Source of the DNA: a virus
Taxonomy: Duplodnaviria; Caudoviricetes
IMG/VR virus record: IMGVR_UViG_3300036861_000067
Coordinates: 1 to 55,469 of that record
DNA: 55,469 nucleotides
Direction: 5' to 3' (one strand)
The notes below the pieces were generated by a model. That model saw only the letters and a list, made by a program, of their open reading frames with translations. It had not been told where the DNA came from and made no database searches. Position numbers and translations under genes: made by a program. Of the stretch, positions 1,387 to 22,407 are shown one piece after another; position 1 is the first letter of the stretch; the number at the start of each line of letters is the position of its first letter.

Positions 1387-3273
1387 ATGCCTAAGCTGCC
1401 AACTGTAGAACAATTAGGCCAAACACCAACACCATCAGTGCGCGGTGGCGTCACGCCTTTGAATCTGGCAACTCCGAACTTATCCCATGCCGCGCAAGCC
1501 GAAGCCGAGTTTGGCCAAGCCATGGCCGGTCTGGGCGATACCCTTGGTAAACTGGCGCAAAAAGAAAAGCTGAACCTGGACACATTGCGCAAGACGGAAG
1601 CAATCAACCAGTTGAAATCCGGTTACATGAAACTGCAAACCGGTGATCCAGAAACCGGGGCTGAAGGCTTTAGCCAAGTTCTGAATGGTGATGCAGTCAA
1701 GCGGCCATTGGTGGAAGAATACCGGCAGAAGCGCCAGGATTTGAAAGACAAGATTCGGGAAAGTCTTTCCAGCGAAGAACAGAAGATCCAGTTCGACCGG
1801 GAAGCTGTTGTAGAAGATCAAATGCATGACTCGCGTTTGTACCAGCACATTGCCCAGCAATCGGTGAATTACCGGAAAGTAAATTTTGAAGCCGCTAAGG
1901 AATTGGACCGTAACATCGCCGCGCTGAACTGGAATAAGCCTGGCGAAATCCAGATGGCGATCTTGCGCATGCAAGTGAACGTCAAGCATGAACTGCGAAT
2001 GGAAGGCTATGACGATGCCCGTCCACAGGACAGGAACACCATCGATGCGGTGCTGACCGCCGAGGAATCCAAGCTTCACGATGCGGTTATCCGCACCATG
2101 TTGATGAACGGCAGTGATGCTGCTGCGCTGAACTATTTCAAATCTATCGAGAACGAACCCGGAAGGTTGACGCCGGAAGCAAGATCGCAACTTGGAACGA
2201 TGGTGCATGCTTCATCTGTGGATGGTGAAGCTGCTGCTATCGCCAAAGAGATTTTCGACCGGCATGCCGGGACTGATGTCAACGCCGCTACCAATCTAGA
2301 ACTGTTAATGAATGAAGTGGATGCTTTGCCTGTTAGCCAACAGATCAAAGACAAAGCTAAAGCGAATTTGTCTCAAAGGGCGCATGTGCGCGACTACACC
2401 GCAGGGGAACTCAATAAGCAAAATGTAGCTACTCTATTGGGTAAGTTCGAGAAAGGTGTACCACTGGAACAACTCCAACGCGACCCGGCTTGGATGGCAC
2501 TGGCCGGCACTGGTGAACAAGCGGAATTAACCAAATACATGAATGATCGCGGCTATACCCTTCAGCAACGCGCTGCGCATGATGCCGAATATGAGGAAGG
2601 CTTGAAGTCACGGGCTGGCTTTAAAAAATATTGGGAACTGTCGAATCCTATGGTGTTGTCTGGTATGACCGAAGCACAGATCCTGGCGCTGGCGCCAACG
2701 CTGGGTCAGCGCCTGACTGGCAATTTGATGGAAATGAAACGTCGTGTTTCCACCGCTGACGGCAGACATGCGGTTCAACTGGATGCCGACATGTTCAATA
2801 TCTATGCAGCTAAAGCAGGACTAGATCCATATAAGACCAAGCAAAGCGCCGAATCGAAAGAGAAGCTAGGCCGGCTGCGCAACTTCGTTGAAGGCGTGAT
2901 CGATGTCAAACAGCGGATTCTGAAGCGTGAACTATATCGTGAAGAAAAAGAAGAACTGATGGAAAAAGAAATCAATCGTGTGGTGCAAACACCGACTTGG
3001 TTGTTTGGCCTGGCTGGCGGTAAGAAAGTGCCGGCTGCCACCGTCACGCCGGAAGATCGCTCCAAGTACATTGTCCGGTTTGAAAAAATCCCGCCTGACT
3101 GGACGTTGGCGTTTGCCAATAAGCTACGGTCTGAAGGGATAGTTCCGCAGAGATGGACTCCACAGCAAATCTATCGCGCCAAGAAAAGCGCCTTTGAGCA
3201 TGCCTATGTAATCGACCAGACAGGCGGCACCCTCAAAGAAGCCTTGGAAGCATTCGGAGCGCCCATCCGATGA
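1387..3273 (+). CDS. Internal virion/ejection protein (gp15-like)
   Basis: 628 aa, helical, MPKLP start, lies between the gp14-like and the large ejection gene. Confidence 0.6.
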   Translation: MPKLPTVEQLGQTPTPSVRGGVTPLNLATPNLSHAAQAEAEFGQAMAGLGDTLGKLAQKEKLNLDTLRKTEAINQLKSGYMKLQTGDPETGAEGFSQVLNGDAVKRPLVEEYRQKRQDLKDKIRESLSSEEQKIQFDREAVVEDQMHDSRLYQHIAQQSVNYRKVNFEAAKELDRNIAALNWNKPGEIQMAILRMQVNVKHELRMEGYDDARPQDRNTIDAVLTAEESKLHDAVIRTMLMNGSDAAALNYFKSIENEPGRLTPEARSQLGTMVHASSVDGEAAAIAKEIFDRHAGTDVNAATNLELLMNEVDALPVSQQIKDKAKANLSQRAHVRDYTAGELNKQNVATLLGKFEKGVPLEQLQRDPAWMALAGTGEQAELTKYMNDRGYTLQQRAAHDAEYEEGLKSRAGFKKYWELSNPMVLSGMTEAQILALAPTLGQRLTGNLMEMKRRVSTADGRHAVQLDADMFNIYAAKAGLDPYKTKQSAESKEKLGRLRNFVEGVIDVKQRILKRELYREEKEELMEKEINRVVQTPTWLFGLAGGKKVPAATVTPEDRSKYIVRFEKIPPDWTLAFANKLRSEGIVPQRWTPQQIYRAKKSAFEHAYVIDQTGGTLKEALEAFGAPIR

Positions 3274-18348: not shown

Positions 18349-18674
18349 AATAAACTACCTTTCTCAAACCAAACAACCGGGTTCATGCCTTGGCGCTGAA
18401 TCAACCAGAACCTAGTGCCGTGGATCTTTGACATCAAACACCAGGGGAGCTTGCGAGCTTTGGCTTGCTCCATTGCCTGTTGGCGGTGGGCAACTGTAAT
18501 GCTGACACAGTTCTTTACTTCGACGCTCCACGTCACACCAAAAGGGTCAACGCCAATCAAATCTTCCGCCTTGTAGCCAGCACTTACCGGCACGGTAGAC
18601 CAGTCATGATCTTTCAATAGGGCTTCGGCGGTGGTTTGGCCCCTTCGCCCCTTGTCTCTAGAAGCCTTACTCAC
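18345..18674 (-). CDS. Holliday junction resolvase-like PD-(D/E)XK nuclease
   Basis: SRDKGRRG, DL, VEVK motifs. Confidence 0.75.
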   Translation of the reverse strand: MSKASRDKGRRGQTTAEALLKDHDWSTVPVSAGYKAEDLIGVDPFGVTWSVEVKNCVSITVAHRQQAMEQAKARKLPWCLMSKIHGTRFWLIQRQGMNPVVWFEKGSLL

Positions 18675-20602
18675 TTGGTGTATCTCCTACTAATCTTACC
18701 CTCAGCCATGATCGGCAAGCCTTCGCTCCAATCCTCGCCAGCCGCCATGGTGGCTAGAAAATCTTCTAACACTTCGTCTGGTTCTTCTTCGTCTACTTCG
18801 TCCACTATTTCATCATGAACATGGATGCGAACGCATTCACCACGCAACCGCCGCAACGCCCCGGCCAGCAGATCGTAGGCAATGGCCTGGGCCAAGTTCT
18901 CTGTTAGCAATCCGTACCACAGCCTGACGACCGGCCATTCCTGCACGCCAGCCTTTGGTGAACGGTTCCCGCGCCGATACTCAACACAATCGCCATAGTC
19001 GTCCTGCACTATCCGGGCGAACGGATAGCACATCAGCCGCCCGGACGGCAACCGGCACCATAGGTGTTCGCCGTCGAACAGGTAGTTAACCGGGCCAACC
19101 GGGAACATCGCCCCCGGCGAATACATCGCCAGCAGCACGGCGTCGCGTAGCGCCGGCCACAACCCTTGCGTAATCCGCGTGTACTTGCCCCGGTAGGCGG
19201 CCACCAGCGCCTTGCGCTCGTCGATGGGTACGTCAATGCCTTCCTTCTTCAAAGACCGCGCCAAGGCGCCTTCACCGCCCCCGAATCCAAGGCCAAGCAC
19301 GCAAGCCTTGAACACCTTGTATTCCTTCGGCGTTTCCGTCTTGCTGATCTTCCGGCAAGTCACGGCTTCACCAAAGCTTGAGTAAGGGCTGACGCCGGAG
19401 CGGAACAACTGCAGTAGCTCAGTCTCGCCGGCCAGCCATGCCGTAATGCGTGCTTCGATCTGCGCGTAGTCGCCAATTAGGAAAACCTTGCCGGGTGAAG
19501 CGATGAAAGTTGGGCGAACAAGTTTGGCCAAGATGGTGACTGGGTCATCCAGCATCTTCAGTGCGGCATGATTATCTTCAAGCATGAATGGTATGGCTTC
19601 GGGGAATGTCTCAGCCATGGTGTTGTGGACTTGCGCCCCTGTAGATGAATAGCGCCCAGTCTGTCCAGCACCACGAAACATGAACAGGCCGCGTAGGTAA
19701 TCGTCAATCGACTTGCGGTCTAGCATGGCCTGATACTTGGATACAGCCGCCTTGGCTTGGCCGGAACGGATTTCCAGAACCTGCTTGACGTTGTCTGGTA
19801 TGTCGGATTCGTCCAGCAAATCGATGATCGTACCCTTACTCAAATCCTCAACCGGTTTCCATTGGGTGGCCACCCAAGATTTGATCTTTTCAACCTGGGT
19901 ATGCGCCGTGACCCAGCCTTTGGTGAGGATGGTTAACGCACGGTCATTGTCGATGTGTTCTTTCTCAGCAAACCAGATAGCATGGGATGCCAGCTTGGTG
20001 TCAATCATTACACCACGGTCGTTGATTTCCTCACTGATGTGATAGTCGGTTAGTTCGCTGTCTGTGAATGGGATGAACGTGTGGAACAAGGCGCGTTCGA
20101 CTTTCACATCCTGCCGGCAGTATTCGGCCAGCCGTTCGTAATCGCGTGGGTCATCCCACCATACCGGTACATTGCCATATTCCATTGACCTGGGCTTGCA
20201 CAACTTTAGCATCAAGTAGTGCCCCTCCTTGTCCTTGAGCTGTGGGATGCCGGCAAAGCGGGCGGCCTTGTCCAAACCGCCAGGATAACCCCTGGCGCGG
20301 GATAAGGCGGCCACGCAATAGAATTGACTTAGAGGGATGGTGGGGAAGCCATGGCGCGGCATCACGTTGTTCCAAATCAGGCGCTCGAATTGTGCATTCC
20401 ATGCACCAAAATGTTCGCCTTGCTTCAGGTGATAGAGAAGTTCGCTTGGTGGGTCTTCACCGGGCAACCAGAGTTCCACATCTCCACCATCAAATGCATA
20501 AGCCAAGCAATTCACATCCGTGGTCGGGTGGGCCGCGTAGTTATAAATTCCACCTTTGAGTAAATCAAAGGTGGAACGGGTTTCAAAATCTGCATGTATC
20601 AT
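18671..20602 (-). CDS. Phage family A DNA polymerase (APSE/SPO2 type) with 3'-5' exonuclease
   Basis: DFET, WNAQFER, YCRQDV, TGRYSS, DYAQIEAR, K...LGLGFG, HVHDEIV. Confidence 0.92.
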   Translation of the reverse strand: MIHADFETRSTFDLLKGGIYNYAAHPTTDVNCLAYAFDGGDVELWLPGEDPPSELLYHLKQGEHFGAWNAQFERLIWNNVMPRHGFPTIPLSQFYCVAALSRARGYPGGLDKAARFAGIPQLKDKEGHYLMLKLCKPRSMEYGNVPVWWDDPRDYERLAEYCRQDVKVERALFHTFIPFTDSELTDYHISEEINDRGVMIDTKLASHAIWFAEKEHIDNDRALTILTKGWVTAHTQVEKIKSWVATQWKPVEDLSKGTIIDLLDESDIPDNVKQVLEIRSGQAKAAVSKYQAMLDRKSIDDYLRGLFMFRGAGQTGRYSSTGAQVHNTMAETFPEAIPFMLEDNHAALKMLDDPVTILAKLVRPTFIASPGKVFLIGDYAQIEARITAWLAGETELLQLFRSGVSPYSSFGEAVTCRKISKTETPKEYKVFKACVLGLGFGGGEGALARSLKKEGIDVPIDERKALVAAYRGKYTRITQGLWPALRDAVLLAMYSPGAMFPVGPVNYLFDGEHLWCRLPSGRLMCYPFARIVQDDYGDCVEYRRGNRSPKAGVQEWPVVRLWYGLLTENLAQAIAYDLLAGALRRLRGECVRIHVHDEIVDEVDEEEPDEVLEDFLATMAAGEDWSEGLPIMAEGKISRRYTK

Positions 20603-21057
20603 TTTATTAGATTTTCAGTAGGAGTCGGAAGGGTTACGTCACGTTGCAAGGTATTGTGATCGAATATTACGGCGGCTGCATAACGCTGTAGAAGTTCCTG
20701 TTTCCTTTTTAAAAGTGGGTCATCTGTAACGACCACAACAGTTTTCTTTACTGAACGCAGAATCTTACGTGTACCACATTGCGCACCTTTTTCACCAGCT
20801 TCAATCCTTTCACCATTACTAAGAACCTTCAACCCAAGGCCATGTAATGACCCTAATTCAATGTTAAAATGTTGGAGCAATTTACGACGCCAAGCATTGG
20901 TGACTACCTTGTAGCGAGCAGACCTGATAGGATGGCCAAGCACTTTTTCAATTGATTCATGTAAGATAATATTTCCCACATCAAAAGGTTCAAAAGTCTT
21001 AATCAATTTCTCAACTTCTGGTGCAGTTGGAATACCGCCAAAAAACATTTTACTCAT
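20599..21057 (-). CDS. Basic hypothetical protein (possible winged helix) linked to the RAMP-like gene
   Basis: AAGGAGA RBS before ATG at 21057; 152 aa; stop overlaps the polymerase start. Confidence 0.7.
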   Translation of the reverse strand: MSKMFFGGIPTAPEVEKLIKTFEPFDVGNIILHESIEKVLGHPIRSARYKVVTNAWRRKLLQHFNIELGSLHGLGLKVLSNGERIEAGEKGAQCGTRKILRSVKKTVVVVTDDPLLKRKQELLQRYAAAVIFDHNTLQRDVTLPTPTENLIK

Positions 21058-21067
21058 TTCAAATCTC

Positions 21068-21205
21068 CTTGTGCATAAAGCACCCATGCCTCGCCAAACC
21101 TAGCCGCGCCTCGCCAAGCCACGCCACGCTTTAATATCTTGTGCATAAAGCACCCATGCCTAGCCCAACCTAGCCTCGCCTTGCCATGCCACGCCGAACC
21201 GCGCT
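21068..21205 (-). ncRNA. Two GGY-NN pentamer units with a 3' hairpin handle (putative guide RNAs, downstream array)
   Basis: + strand: handle CTTGTGCATAAAGCACCC at 21068 and 21138, followed by 9 and 10 pentamers (NN-RCC, the last one NN-GCT). Confidence 0.75.
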
Positions 21206-21864
21206 TAAATCCTTTTAATTACCACAGTAAATCTGCCAAATGGCCCTGGAGTTTTACCGCCAGGACGCCAATCACCTAAACCTTTATACTGCCCGGCAAA
21301 AGTGAGAATGTCTTTCAAAACTTCATCAGTGATCTGTTCATCCATTATTGAAAGCGTGCCATAAAGTGACCAGCTATCAAAACGTGGGCGCACCCGGACA
21401 TGCTTACTTGTGCCGATCTTTGCCCGCTTAATGAAAAGACTGAAGCCAAGAGCTTCTACAGCTTTGCGATGCGCTTTAAAATCTTCTACATCTTTCAAAG
21501 CGTGAATGTGCTGGATAGGAATAGCTTGCCCGTTAACTGATAATTCCCAATCAGCTTCAGGAGCGATGCCGCTTTGAGTTTGTGACTTAAAAGTTTTACC
21601 AGATTTGCCACCTGGAACTGGCACCATCGCGCCACCTTCCATAATGCAGCGCATGACATTATCGCTTGGCATAGTGACGAATTTACCATCATGGTAAACT
21701 GAACCAATCCAACGAAATGCGGGTGAACGATCATCTCCGGCTTTACTTCCTTTTTTATTATGCGGGTCATTTTTCCAATCATCCATGGAATCCGACCAAT
21801 CAATATTGTCCCAATGCATAAGTAATGGGGTCTGACCAGTAACGAAAACTTCATATCTACGCAT
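21205..21864 (-). CDS. Stand-alone Cas7/RAMP-like protein (Vipr-like)
   Basis: N-terminal strand with TPLLMH, P...MRCIMEGG helix, RVRPRFDSW, C-terminal Gly-rich loop GLGDWRP...FGRF; AAAGGTGA RBS before ATG at 21864. Confidence 0.7.
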   Translation of the reverse strand: MRRYEVFVTGQTPLLMHWDNIDWSDSMDDWKNDPHNKKGSKAGDDRSPAFRWIGSVYHDGKFVTMPSDNVMRCIMEGGAMVPVPGGKSGKTFKSQTQSGIAPEADWELSVNGQAIPIQHIHALKDVEDFKAHRKAVEALGFSLFIKRAKIGTSKHVRVRPRFDSWSLYGTLSIMDEQITDEVLKDILTFAGQYKGLGDWRPGGKTPGPFGRFTVVIKRI

Positions 21865-21882
21865 GAAAATCACCTTTAAAAT

Positions 21883-22071
21883 TTGTGCAAACGCACCCTT
21901 GCCTCACCTGGCCCCGCCTTGCCCAGCCAGGCCGCGCCACGCCTTGCCCGGCCGTGCCATGCCAAGCCGCGCCGCGACTAATTTAATGTGCTTACGCACC
22001 CTTGCCCTGCCTCACCCCGCCGCACCTCGCCCGGCCCGGCCCGGCCTGGCCCGGCCTAGTCTAGCCTTACC
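21883..22071 (-). ncRNA. Two GGY-NN pentamer units with a 3' hairpin handle (putative guide RNAs, upstream array)
   Basis: Handles TGTGC-N4-GCACCC at about 21884 and 21987, followed by 15 and 14 pentamers on the + strand. Confidence 0.75.
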
Positions 22072-22407
22072 TTATCTCTCAATCTCCCGTAATTCAATCC
22101 GGGTTCCACGTTCTTCCACAGCCACCAGTTCCAAGCATTTCTTCTCAATGTAAGCCGCTGATGTCTCCCCTGGTGTAATCGGCGGCTGAAGAACAAAAGC
22201 CAAGATCCCACGAACATGTTCTTCCGGTACTGTCGGGTGCGCCCGCTTCAAAGCTTCGATGATCTTCGGCAGATTCATCATGTAGATAAGGCCGGTAGCT
22301 TCACGCGTCACCTGGGCATATTCCTTACACGTTACTTCCTTTGTGACGGGCGCAGTTGCGCCCATCGCTGGCCCTGCAAGCAGGGCCAGCAACAGAATGC
22401 TTTTCAT
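22072..22407 (-). CDS. Exported hypothetical protein
   Basis: Signal peptide MKSILLLALLAGPAMG; two Cys. Confidence 0.65.
   Translation of the reverse strand: MKSILLLALLAGPAMGATAPVTKEVTCKEYAQVTREATGLIYMMNLPKIIEALKRAHPTVPEEHVRGILAFVLQPPITPGETSAAYIEKKCLELVAVEERGTRIELREIER

Follow-up and report, generated by a model that had tools for sequence, protein, structure and literature searches.

A very probable VIPR locus with four hairpin-tailed guide RNAs in the replication module of an environmental phage

Background

VIPR (Viral Interference Programmable Repeat) systems, which comprise the phage-borne RAMP protein Vipr, RNAs termed vrRNAs and an accessory gene, vap, have been described in three bioRxiv preprints of 2026 (10.64898/2026.04.26.720920, PMC13142463; 10.64898/2026.04.26.720927; 10.64898/2026.10.15.759431). 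According to the portions of these preprints available to us, there are seven types, of which type II has been characterised in Escherichia phage SUSP1 and a Pseudomonas fulva prophage. A vrRNA typically consists of 9-16 (at least four) YNNGG repeats (Y, pyrimidine; N, any base), in which GGY is conserved and NN hypervariable, followed by an invariable, structured 3' tail that forms a pseudoknot in the SUSP1 clade. Each repeat is occupied by one Vipr protomer, which hides the GGY and presents the NN; the guide then pairs with double-stranded DNA (dsDNA) while skipping every third target base, and competing elements, for example satellites and prophages, are thereby silenced at the level of transcription. 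The SUSP1 system has been experimentally shown to be an RNA guide, and type II systems silence dsDNA without cleaving it (10.64898/2026.04.26.720920). Here we describe a locus of comparable organization in IMG/VR virus record IMGVR_UViG_3300036861_000067 (Duplodnaviria; Caudoviricetes), a complete phage genome of 55,469 bp with about 51% G+C, the whole of which is referred to below as the window.

The locus is built around four hairpin-bearing units at positions 21071-22071, and all the genes around them are encoded on the minus strand. In this orientation the order is a 111-residue open reading frame (ORF), units A1 and A2, a 219-residue ORF, units B1 and B2, a 152-residue ORF and a family-A DNA polymerase. 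We hold with high confidence that this region is a VIPR locus of the phage, consisting of A1, A2, vipr (the 219-residue ORF), B1, B2 and a vap-like gene (the 152-residue ORF), with the four units being guide RNAs with hairpin tails. VIPR itself has already been published, and the locus is a further example of it.

A Cas7-like Vipr homolog between two arrays

The 219-residue protein matched no Pfam family and its sole PHROG match was PHROG 4652, of unknown function. Its predicted structural model displays the Cas7/RAMP fold (RRM core, G-loop and thumb), and all the structural matches shown for this model are Cas7-type effector subunits, with none being Cas6. A profile built from 35 members of the family recovered one solved chain, namely PDB 36pp_D, the "SUSP1 Vipr protein" (E 3.3e-14), and in a tblastn search against phages SUSP1 and SUSP2 98% of the query aligned, at 26.6% identity (E 6e-9). 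In an alignment with the homologs from coliphage SUSP2 and Pseudomonas phage LESphi2, residues H17, R159, D198 and R200 of the window protein are invariant, and the position of W199 is occupied by W in SUSP2 and by Y in LESphi2. By way of the SUSP2 sequence, H17, R159 and D198/W199/R200 correspond to H17, R138 and D177/W178/R179 of SUSP1, which are the residues reported to read the GGY bases in the published account available to us (10.64898/2026.04.26.720927).

Searches recovered 2512 protein homologs at E <= 1e-3, and every name among the matches listed is "hypothetical protein". The closest Vipr homologs in named genomes come from Pseudorhodoferax, Rubrivivax and Rhodoferax, in addition to which there are several metagenome-assembled genomes of other phyla; the host of the phage is likely a member of the Burkholderiales.

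Pentamer tracts of the guide units

Each of the four units comprises an A/U-rich linker or start, 8-15 GGYNN pentamers, a GG dinucleotide and a GUGC-loop-GCAC hairpin, with the total length ranging from 55 to 94 nt (the repeat count of A2 rises to 16 if its degenerate first unit, GUCGC, is included). The pattern (GGYNN)4GGY, allowing at most one mismatch, occurs 41 times in the window as against an expectation of 0.25, and 40 of the 41 matches fall within the four tracts. When 661 pentamers from 49 units with a strict hairpin (as defined below) in the window and 23 other loci are considered together, position 3 is C in 85% and T in 13% of cases, and positions 4 and 5 have entropies of 1.95 and 1.99 bits. 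The specificity of the guides sits in these NN dinucleotides of the tract. The last repeat before the tail is more constrained, its NN being AA, GA or AT in 41 of the 49 units versus about 21% of the 612 inner repeats.

Units B1 and B2 are 91% identical over 58 nt, with all five differences being located at NN positions and none in the GGY triplets or the tail. The pair looks, from its sequence, like a duplicated guide that was retargeted to a variant of one and the same site.

Several of these features had been noticed in a preliminary description made from the letters of the sequence alone. A pattern search bears out its statement that the GTGC/GCAC stem is identical in all four 3' handles while the loops differ (GTAA, GTTT, TTTAT and TTTAT), and its AT-rich linkers are present between the units as AUUAAAUUA and AAGAUAUUAAA. 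The downstream pair of handles indeed starts exactly 70 nt apart (21155 versus 21085). Both arrays begin at a stop codon, as it had said: array A starts directly after the TAA of the 111-residue ORF, and array B a few nucleotides after the TAA of vipr. Its reading of the units as RNAs defined by a conserved handle stands insofar as the sequence points to discrete guide-type RNAs of about 55-90 nt that carry a conserved structured 3' element and lie beside a Cas7-like protein. The same reading missed the specificity that resides in NN, and its main omission is the strict GGYNN pentamer tract that forms the body of each unit.

Short contigs from soil and wastewater sequencing runs (four runs) align to the window at 21036-21236 and 21840-22107, that is, at the pentamer tracts, mostly at less than 90% likeness, and extend from there into unlike sequence that is itself pentamer-periodic; GGYNN tracts may therefore be common in those samples. 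These are alignments of assembled contigs, which are uninformative on RNA ends and subject to cross-mapping on pentamer tracts.

The hairpin tail

The four handles are instances of two simple patterns. GGGTGC-N4-GCAC has two copies in the window, at 21885-21898 (loop GTTT) and 21988-22001 (loop GTAA), and GGGTGC-N5-GCAC likewise has two, at 21071-21085 and 21141-21155 (both with loop TTTAT); neither occurs elsewhere in the window, with about 0.2 copies of each being expected by chance. The hairpin is present in the minimum-free-energy fold of all four units. To place it in a broader context, we surveyed 83 tract ends from the window and the 23 other loci for a strict hairpin, defined as a Watson-Crick stem of at least 4 bp with a loop of 3-5 nt. 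Such a hairpin lies exactly 2 nt past the last GG at 49 of the 83 tract ends, as opposed to 114 of 5000 random positions, and 14 different outer stems are represented among the 49.

A subset of 21 tails with compatible geometry was used to examine the stem column by column, because a MAFFT alignment of 38 tails had misplaced the loop gaps. Compensatory changes are found in all four stem pairs, with 24 doubly changed cells versus 7.7 +/- 1.8 in shuffles, and control alignments slid along the sequence pair at 17-45%. The 100% pairing of the 21 tails themselves is so by construction, because the rows were pre-selected for a hairpin; hence the unbiased measure of the tail is the count of 49 in 83 tract ends and not the pairing of the 21 rows. 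The base immediately after the stem is A in 34 of the 49 units, which together with the constrained last NN implies that the handle is better written as GGC-AA-GG-stem-loop-stem-A.

In the clade of the window the tail consists of the hairpin alone, followed by a linker of 9-15 nt. We take the hairpin to be the 3' tail of the vrRNA, the invariant folded terminus with which the filament would be capped; in this clade it is reduced to a minimal 4-5 bp. The preliminary description had proposed a processing or capping signal comparable to a CRISPR repeat hairpin. Both the comparison and the capping role find a counterpart in the available portions of the published work, where the vrRNA tail is likened to the repeat handle of CRISPR RNA (crRNA) (10.64898/2026.04.26.720920) and cryo-electron microscopy of the SUSP1 complex has the tail capping the 3' end and staying on the mature RNA (10.64898/2026.04.26.720927).

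In several relatives a second, longer hairpin directly follows the tail of the first array unit, for instance GGATAGA...TCTATCC in the viral-contig locus L001 (Table 1).

Conservation of the unit-gene linkage in distant phages

The same layout of units recurs in relatives, including loci from viral contigs and genomes at 24-67% identity, Pseudomonas phage LESphi2 and coliphage SUSP2. Every vipr-homolog locus that was fetched, namely seven viral-contig loci whose Vipr is 56-67% identical to that of the window (L001-L007), LESphi2 and SUSP2, has at least one GGYNN tract beside the gene. In LESphi2 three units are situated upstream of vipr, and the gene lies between the cI/sigma-factor genes and the integrase region. 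In SUSP2 two units precede and two follow vipr, with the repeats written GGUNN, and the pseudoknot was seen independently in our analysis: in each of the four units the 10 nt of the loop find their complement some 10 nt further downstream, and the pairing covaries from unit to unit. An Rfam search of the LESphi2 and SUSP2 loci gave nothing relevant at E <= 1.

The linkage was also approached from the opposite direction, with a bare DNA pattern scan of viral contigs. This recovered nine loci, representing six distinct sequences owing to three duplicate pairs, and five of the six encode a Vipr homolog of 24-56% identity. The exception is the duplicate pair L012/L013, in which no Vipr homolog was found within 3 kb on either side. 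L012 has two GGCNN tracts of 10-11 repeats at 3002-3122, the second being without a clean hairpin after it, and these tracts may be solo vrRNAs of the kind mentioned in the available part of one of the preprints (10.64898/2026.10.15.759431).

Some further features of individual relatives were observed. The linkers of SUSP2 (L018, 3700-3910 and 5090-5290) contain a repeated motif, roughly AAAGGYCUUU...GGGUCUUUUAAUGAGG, before each tract, and a TTGACA/TATACT promoter-like site is located upstream of its first unit. Downstream of vipr in L007 (3675-4632) there are about ten short units in tandem, many more than in the window, all of them with a GGUC-caau-GACC tail and a conserved 'aatgtttc' linker.

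A vap-like accessory gene

The 152-residue ORF has homologs in the vicinity of vipr at 16 distinct loci (from 17 tblastn rows, with L001 and L019 being the same). Its structural model (predicted local distance difference test score, pLDDT, 88) has a helix-strand-helix-helix-strand-strand domain followed by two long helices. A comparison by hhalign of a 15-member profile of this family with the SUSP2 gene in the vap position gave a probability of 85% (E 6.5e-6), and with the LESphi2 gene a probability of 55% (E 1.2e-4). No Pfam family was matched by more than one of the 15 members and none was below E 0.025. We term the gene vap-like.

Comparison with known systems

At the level of sequence, the features of VIPR systems that concern the protein, the repeats and the tail were all found in the window, to which the accessory gene may perhaps be added. 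Like the type II systems of SUSP1 and P. fulva, the locus is phage-encoded, its one RAMP gene is small and encodes the H, R and D-W-R residues that read GGY, and it has vrRNAs with free NN (8-15 GGYNN repeats in the window) and a constant structured 3' tail on both sides of vipr; it is without a self-target, and the small gene that follows, with a possible winged-helix domain, is a putative counterpart of the accessory gene. It differs from type II in its Vipr sequence (see below), in the tail, which at 12-13 nt amounts to no more than a 4-bp hairpin and is too short for a pseudoknot like that in the approximately 40-nt tail of SUSP1, and in the placement of its arrays between cistrons of a replication operon without a promoter-like site of their own.

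By analogy with the characterised systems, one Vipr protomer would bind each GGYNN repeat, hiding GGY and presenting NN, and the NN bases would pair with dsDNA with every third target base being skipped. This pairing might silence the transcription of a competing mobile element, with the GUGC-loop-GCAC hairpin capping the Vipr filament at the 3' end of the guide.

The ribonucleoproteins formed by crRNAs in class 1 CRISPR-Cas systems share with the locus the Cas7-like fold, protein units that polymerise along a guide RNA, and a constant structured handle at one end of a variable guide. They read their guide in a 6-nt step, whereas the VIPR guide has a 5-nt step with three hidden bases, and they derive from a repeat-spacer array, which the locus lacks. 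No CRISPR-type array was found in 21000-22120, where direct repeats are confined to the tracts of pentamers and to B1 and B2, which are 91% identical; the element common to the units is the 12-13-nt hairpin and not a set of near-identical direct repeats with unique spacers. Similarly, scans of 12 neighbouring ORFs with Pfam and PHROGs named no other Cas family.

Type III toxin-antitoxin systems of the ToxIN kind also have a protein gene immediately preceded by tandem RNA units, which presumably arise by cleavage of a longer transcript. In contrast to these, the window units consist of pentamers and vary in sequence as well as in length (55-94 nt), and the partner protein has a Cas7-like fold rather than being a ToxN-type endoribonuclease.

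Target searches

Guides were converted to targets by replacing GGY with one wildcard, following the published rule as given in the available text (10.64898/2026.04.26.720920), and the scans were exact or allowed three mismatches, which makes their sensitivity well below that of the published nhmmer screen (at least 80% NN match). Guide A2 had no match in its own genome at up to three mismatches. Across the window and 24 loci no skip-1 site rose above noise or did better than skip-0 or skip-2, with the best skip-1 scores in the window being 13/18 or 13/16 for the short guides and 19/30 for A2. In these scans the phage is not targeted by its own guides, as is the case in the published VIPR systems described in the accessible portion of that preprint (10.64898/2026.04.26.720920).

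Among viral contigs, two half-guide seeds of A2 recovered 20 loci, all of them matching 18-21 of the 30 NN bases, scores which are the expectation from a 16-base seed plus chance. Exact scans of the viral contigs produced no matches for B1, for B2 (9 repeats) or for the central part of A2, nor did two 11-repeat scans of metagenomes. A sample of 401 genomes from the bacterial order to which G001 (the Pseudorhodoferax genome with locus L019) belongs contained no match to the full A2 guide at up to three mismatches. A 10-repeat core of A1 has an exact skip-1 match at a single locus, L049 (1492-1532), with 22 of 28 NN bases matching overall. The match is within a reading frame that stays open over at least 807 residues in a viral contig of 67% GC, the skipped base being at codon position 2 and not at the wobble position. 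As guide A1 is of low complexity and GC-rich, this match was set aside as probably due to chance.

Weighing the evidence and the alternatives

The anatomy of the locus, the fold and homology of its Vipr, the conservation of the GGY-reading residues, the conservation and covariation of the tail and the linkage of units to vipr in distant relatives are all direct observations. Several points weigh against assigning the locus to VIPR. The window protein has low identity (26-31%) to the characterised Vipr proteins of SUSP1/SUSP2 and LESphi2 and has insertions that these do not possess, as seen in the SUSP2/LESphi2 alignment. Assignment of the 152-residue protein as a Vap is weak: BLASTP gives an E-value of 0.059 against the SUSP2 gene and nothing against that of LESphi2, and a Foldseek search with the model has no match at E <= 1e-3, the best rows being mostly winged-helix DNA-binding proteins at E 0.025-0.6. 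Under the definition used, 34 of the 83 tract ends are without a strict hairpin, some of these being internal tract breaks or tails of another geometry. The scans described above yielded no natural target of A1, A2, B1 or B2. Finally, the formation of a ribonucleoprotein, the binding of DNA and silencing would hold for this phage by analogy with the systems of the preprints.

A distinct question, which touches the role of the hairpin and not the identity of the locus, is whether the hairpin serves mainly as a processing signal, with Vipr, the vap-like protein or an RNase of the host recognizing the stem-loop and cutting beside it, as Cas6 does at CRISPR repeats, and thereby freeing the units from the operon mRNA. 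The arrays lie between cistrons, and a scan of the window found neither a sigma-70-like promoter nor an intrinsic-terminator-like site between the units; on the minus strand the closest good promoter-like site is at 24272-24243. Hence it is plausible that the guides are released from a longer operon transcript. The last hairpin of each array, those of A2 and B2, is placed 0-12 nt before the Shine-Dalgarno sequence of vipr and the vap-like gene respectively, and in relatives 18 of the 49 units have a Shine-Dalgarno sequence and a start codon within 45 nt downstream. The stem is constant within a locus and covaries between loci, and Vipr belongs to the RAMP superfamily, which includes Cas6. All of this would suit a cleavage signal, but the Cas7-type nature of the structural matches does not, and a 4-bp stem is a small recognition element. 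RNase E prefers A/U- or A-rich single-stranded RNA, and linkers of this composition would suit host endonucleases without any need for a hairpin signal. Moreover, cleavage at the tail is not mentioned in the available text of the three preprints, and the SUSP1 structures, as described there, retain the tail on the mature RNA as a cap. We accordingly view a chiefly processing role as doubtful, and favor the hairpin as a cap: the units might be cut from the operon transcript within the A-rich linkers, and a stable 3' end of the guide would be set by the hairpin together with the Vipr bound to the RNA.

Two broader alternatives would deny that the units are guides at all. The hairpins and G-rich tracts might act in the mRNA in some general capacity, for instance as stabilisers, attenuators or terminators, or be bound by a ring protein similar to the trp RNA-binding attenuation protein (TRAP), whose site has a triplet every 5 nt; their location in untranslated regions just before ribosome-binding sites is compatible with this. 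Yet no hairpin is followed by a U-tract or scored as a terminator in the scan, the entropy of the NN positions is close to its maximum, up to about ten units occur in tandem in L007, and the association of units with a Cas7-like gene is strict even among phages as distant as 24-26% identity; the homologous SUSP1 system, as reported in the accessible part of the preprint, is experimentally an RNA guide (10.64898/2026.04.26.720920). Such an explanation is highly improbable. The other alternative, to which we assign hardly any likelihood, is an element acting at the level of DNA, i.e. a replication origin, a tract forming an R-loop or G-quadruplex, or protein-binding iterons. It could draw on the position between genes for a polymerase, an exonuclease, a helicase and a primase, on the strong GC skew of the element (about -0.4 on the plus strand) and on the A/T-rich linkers, but the same units occur beside vipr outside replication modules, as in LESphi2, the strand of the units is always that of the neighbouring genes, and the compensatory stem changes are indicative of folding as a single strand. 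Given the Cas7 fold and the match to Vipr, TRAP-like ring sites, G-quadruplex or R-loop origin tracts and ToxIN-type arrays were dropped as candidates.

Possible coupling of guide release and translation

The available text of the three preprints (10.64898/2026.04.26.720920, 10.64898/2026.04.26.720927 and 10.64898/2026.10.15.759431) gives no maturation mechanism for arrays of the present type, the only related mentions being ribozyme-interspersed and staggered arrays in other VIPR types, and does not describe a coupling of guide maturation to translation. In the window a Shine-Dalgarno-like AAAGGUG and then the ATG of vipr are found downstream of A2, and AAGGAG and the ATG of the vap-like gene directly 3' of B2. 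Since each array thus ends in a minimal hairpin 0-12 nt before a ribosome-binding site, the loading of Vipr on a nascent hairpin-capped guide could have two effects, namely to fix the 3' end of that guide and to block or expose the neighbouring ribosome-binding site. We consider such a function of intercistronic vrRNA arrays quite unlikely. Were it true, Vipr loading would provide a built-in feedback by which the synthesis of Vipr and Vap is matched to the supply of guides.

Genomic setting

The genes neighbouring the locus form a phage replication module, in which Pfam and PHROGs identify a family-A DNA polymerase, a DUF2800/PD-(D/E)XK exonuclease, a SNF2-type helicase, a DUF3987 primase and a Gam/Gp157-like protein. 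A blastn search of the 1.8-kb region against a phage collection had no match, an Rfam scan of the window returned no family at the gathering score, and no tRNA genes were found in it. The 111-residue ORF has a signal-peptide-like N-terminus, starting MKSILLLALLAGPAMG; it matched neither Pfam nor PHROGs, and tblastn found no homolog of it in the related loci. A 96-residue ORF on the plus strand (21863-22153) is the C-rich complement of array A and is very unlikely to be a gene.

Table 1. Coordinates of the features of the locus, with the second hairpins of related loci
Feature	Coordinates	Strand	Remarks
111-residue ORF	22072-22407	-	directly upstream of array A; TAA stop adjoins A1
vrRNA A1	21988-22071	-	14 GGYNN repeats, GG, hairpin GUGC-GUAA-GCAC at 21988-21999
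A1/A2 linker AUUAAAUUA	21979-21987	-	A/U-rich
vrRNA A2	21885-21978	-	15 GGYNN repeats, GG, hairpin GUGC-GUUU-GCAC at 21885-21896
vipr, 219 residues, Cas7-like RAMP protein	21205-21864	-	ATG at 21864; alternative upstream GTG at 21873
vrRNA B1	21141-21200	-	9 GGYNN repeats, GG, hairpin GUGC-UUUAU-GCAC at 21141-21153
B1/B2 linker AAGAUAUUAAAGCGU	21126-21140	-	B2 may have a degenerate first repeat in the final 5 nt of the linker
vrRNA B2	21071-21125	-	8 GGYNN repeats, GG, hairpin GUGC-UUUAU-GCAC at 21071-21083
vap-like gene, 152 residues	20599-21057	-	downstream of B2
family-A DNA polymerase	18671-20602	-	Pfam/PHROGs; downstream of the vap-like gene
second hairpin after first-unit tail	L001 2856-2900; L004 2843-2880; L006 3760-3800; L017 3766-3810; L021 3739-3775; L024 3862-3900		

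Conclusions

The locus extends VIPR to a large, uncharacterised environmental clade, while leaving the picture of VIPR itself unchanged. Its compact 4-bp tail offers a convenient case in which to ask what the tail is needed for, be it capping, assembly or 3'-end formation, and the intercistronic position of its guides allows the release of guides to be studied.

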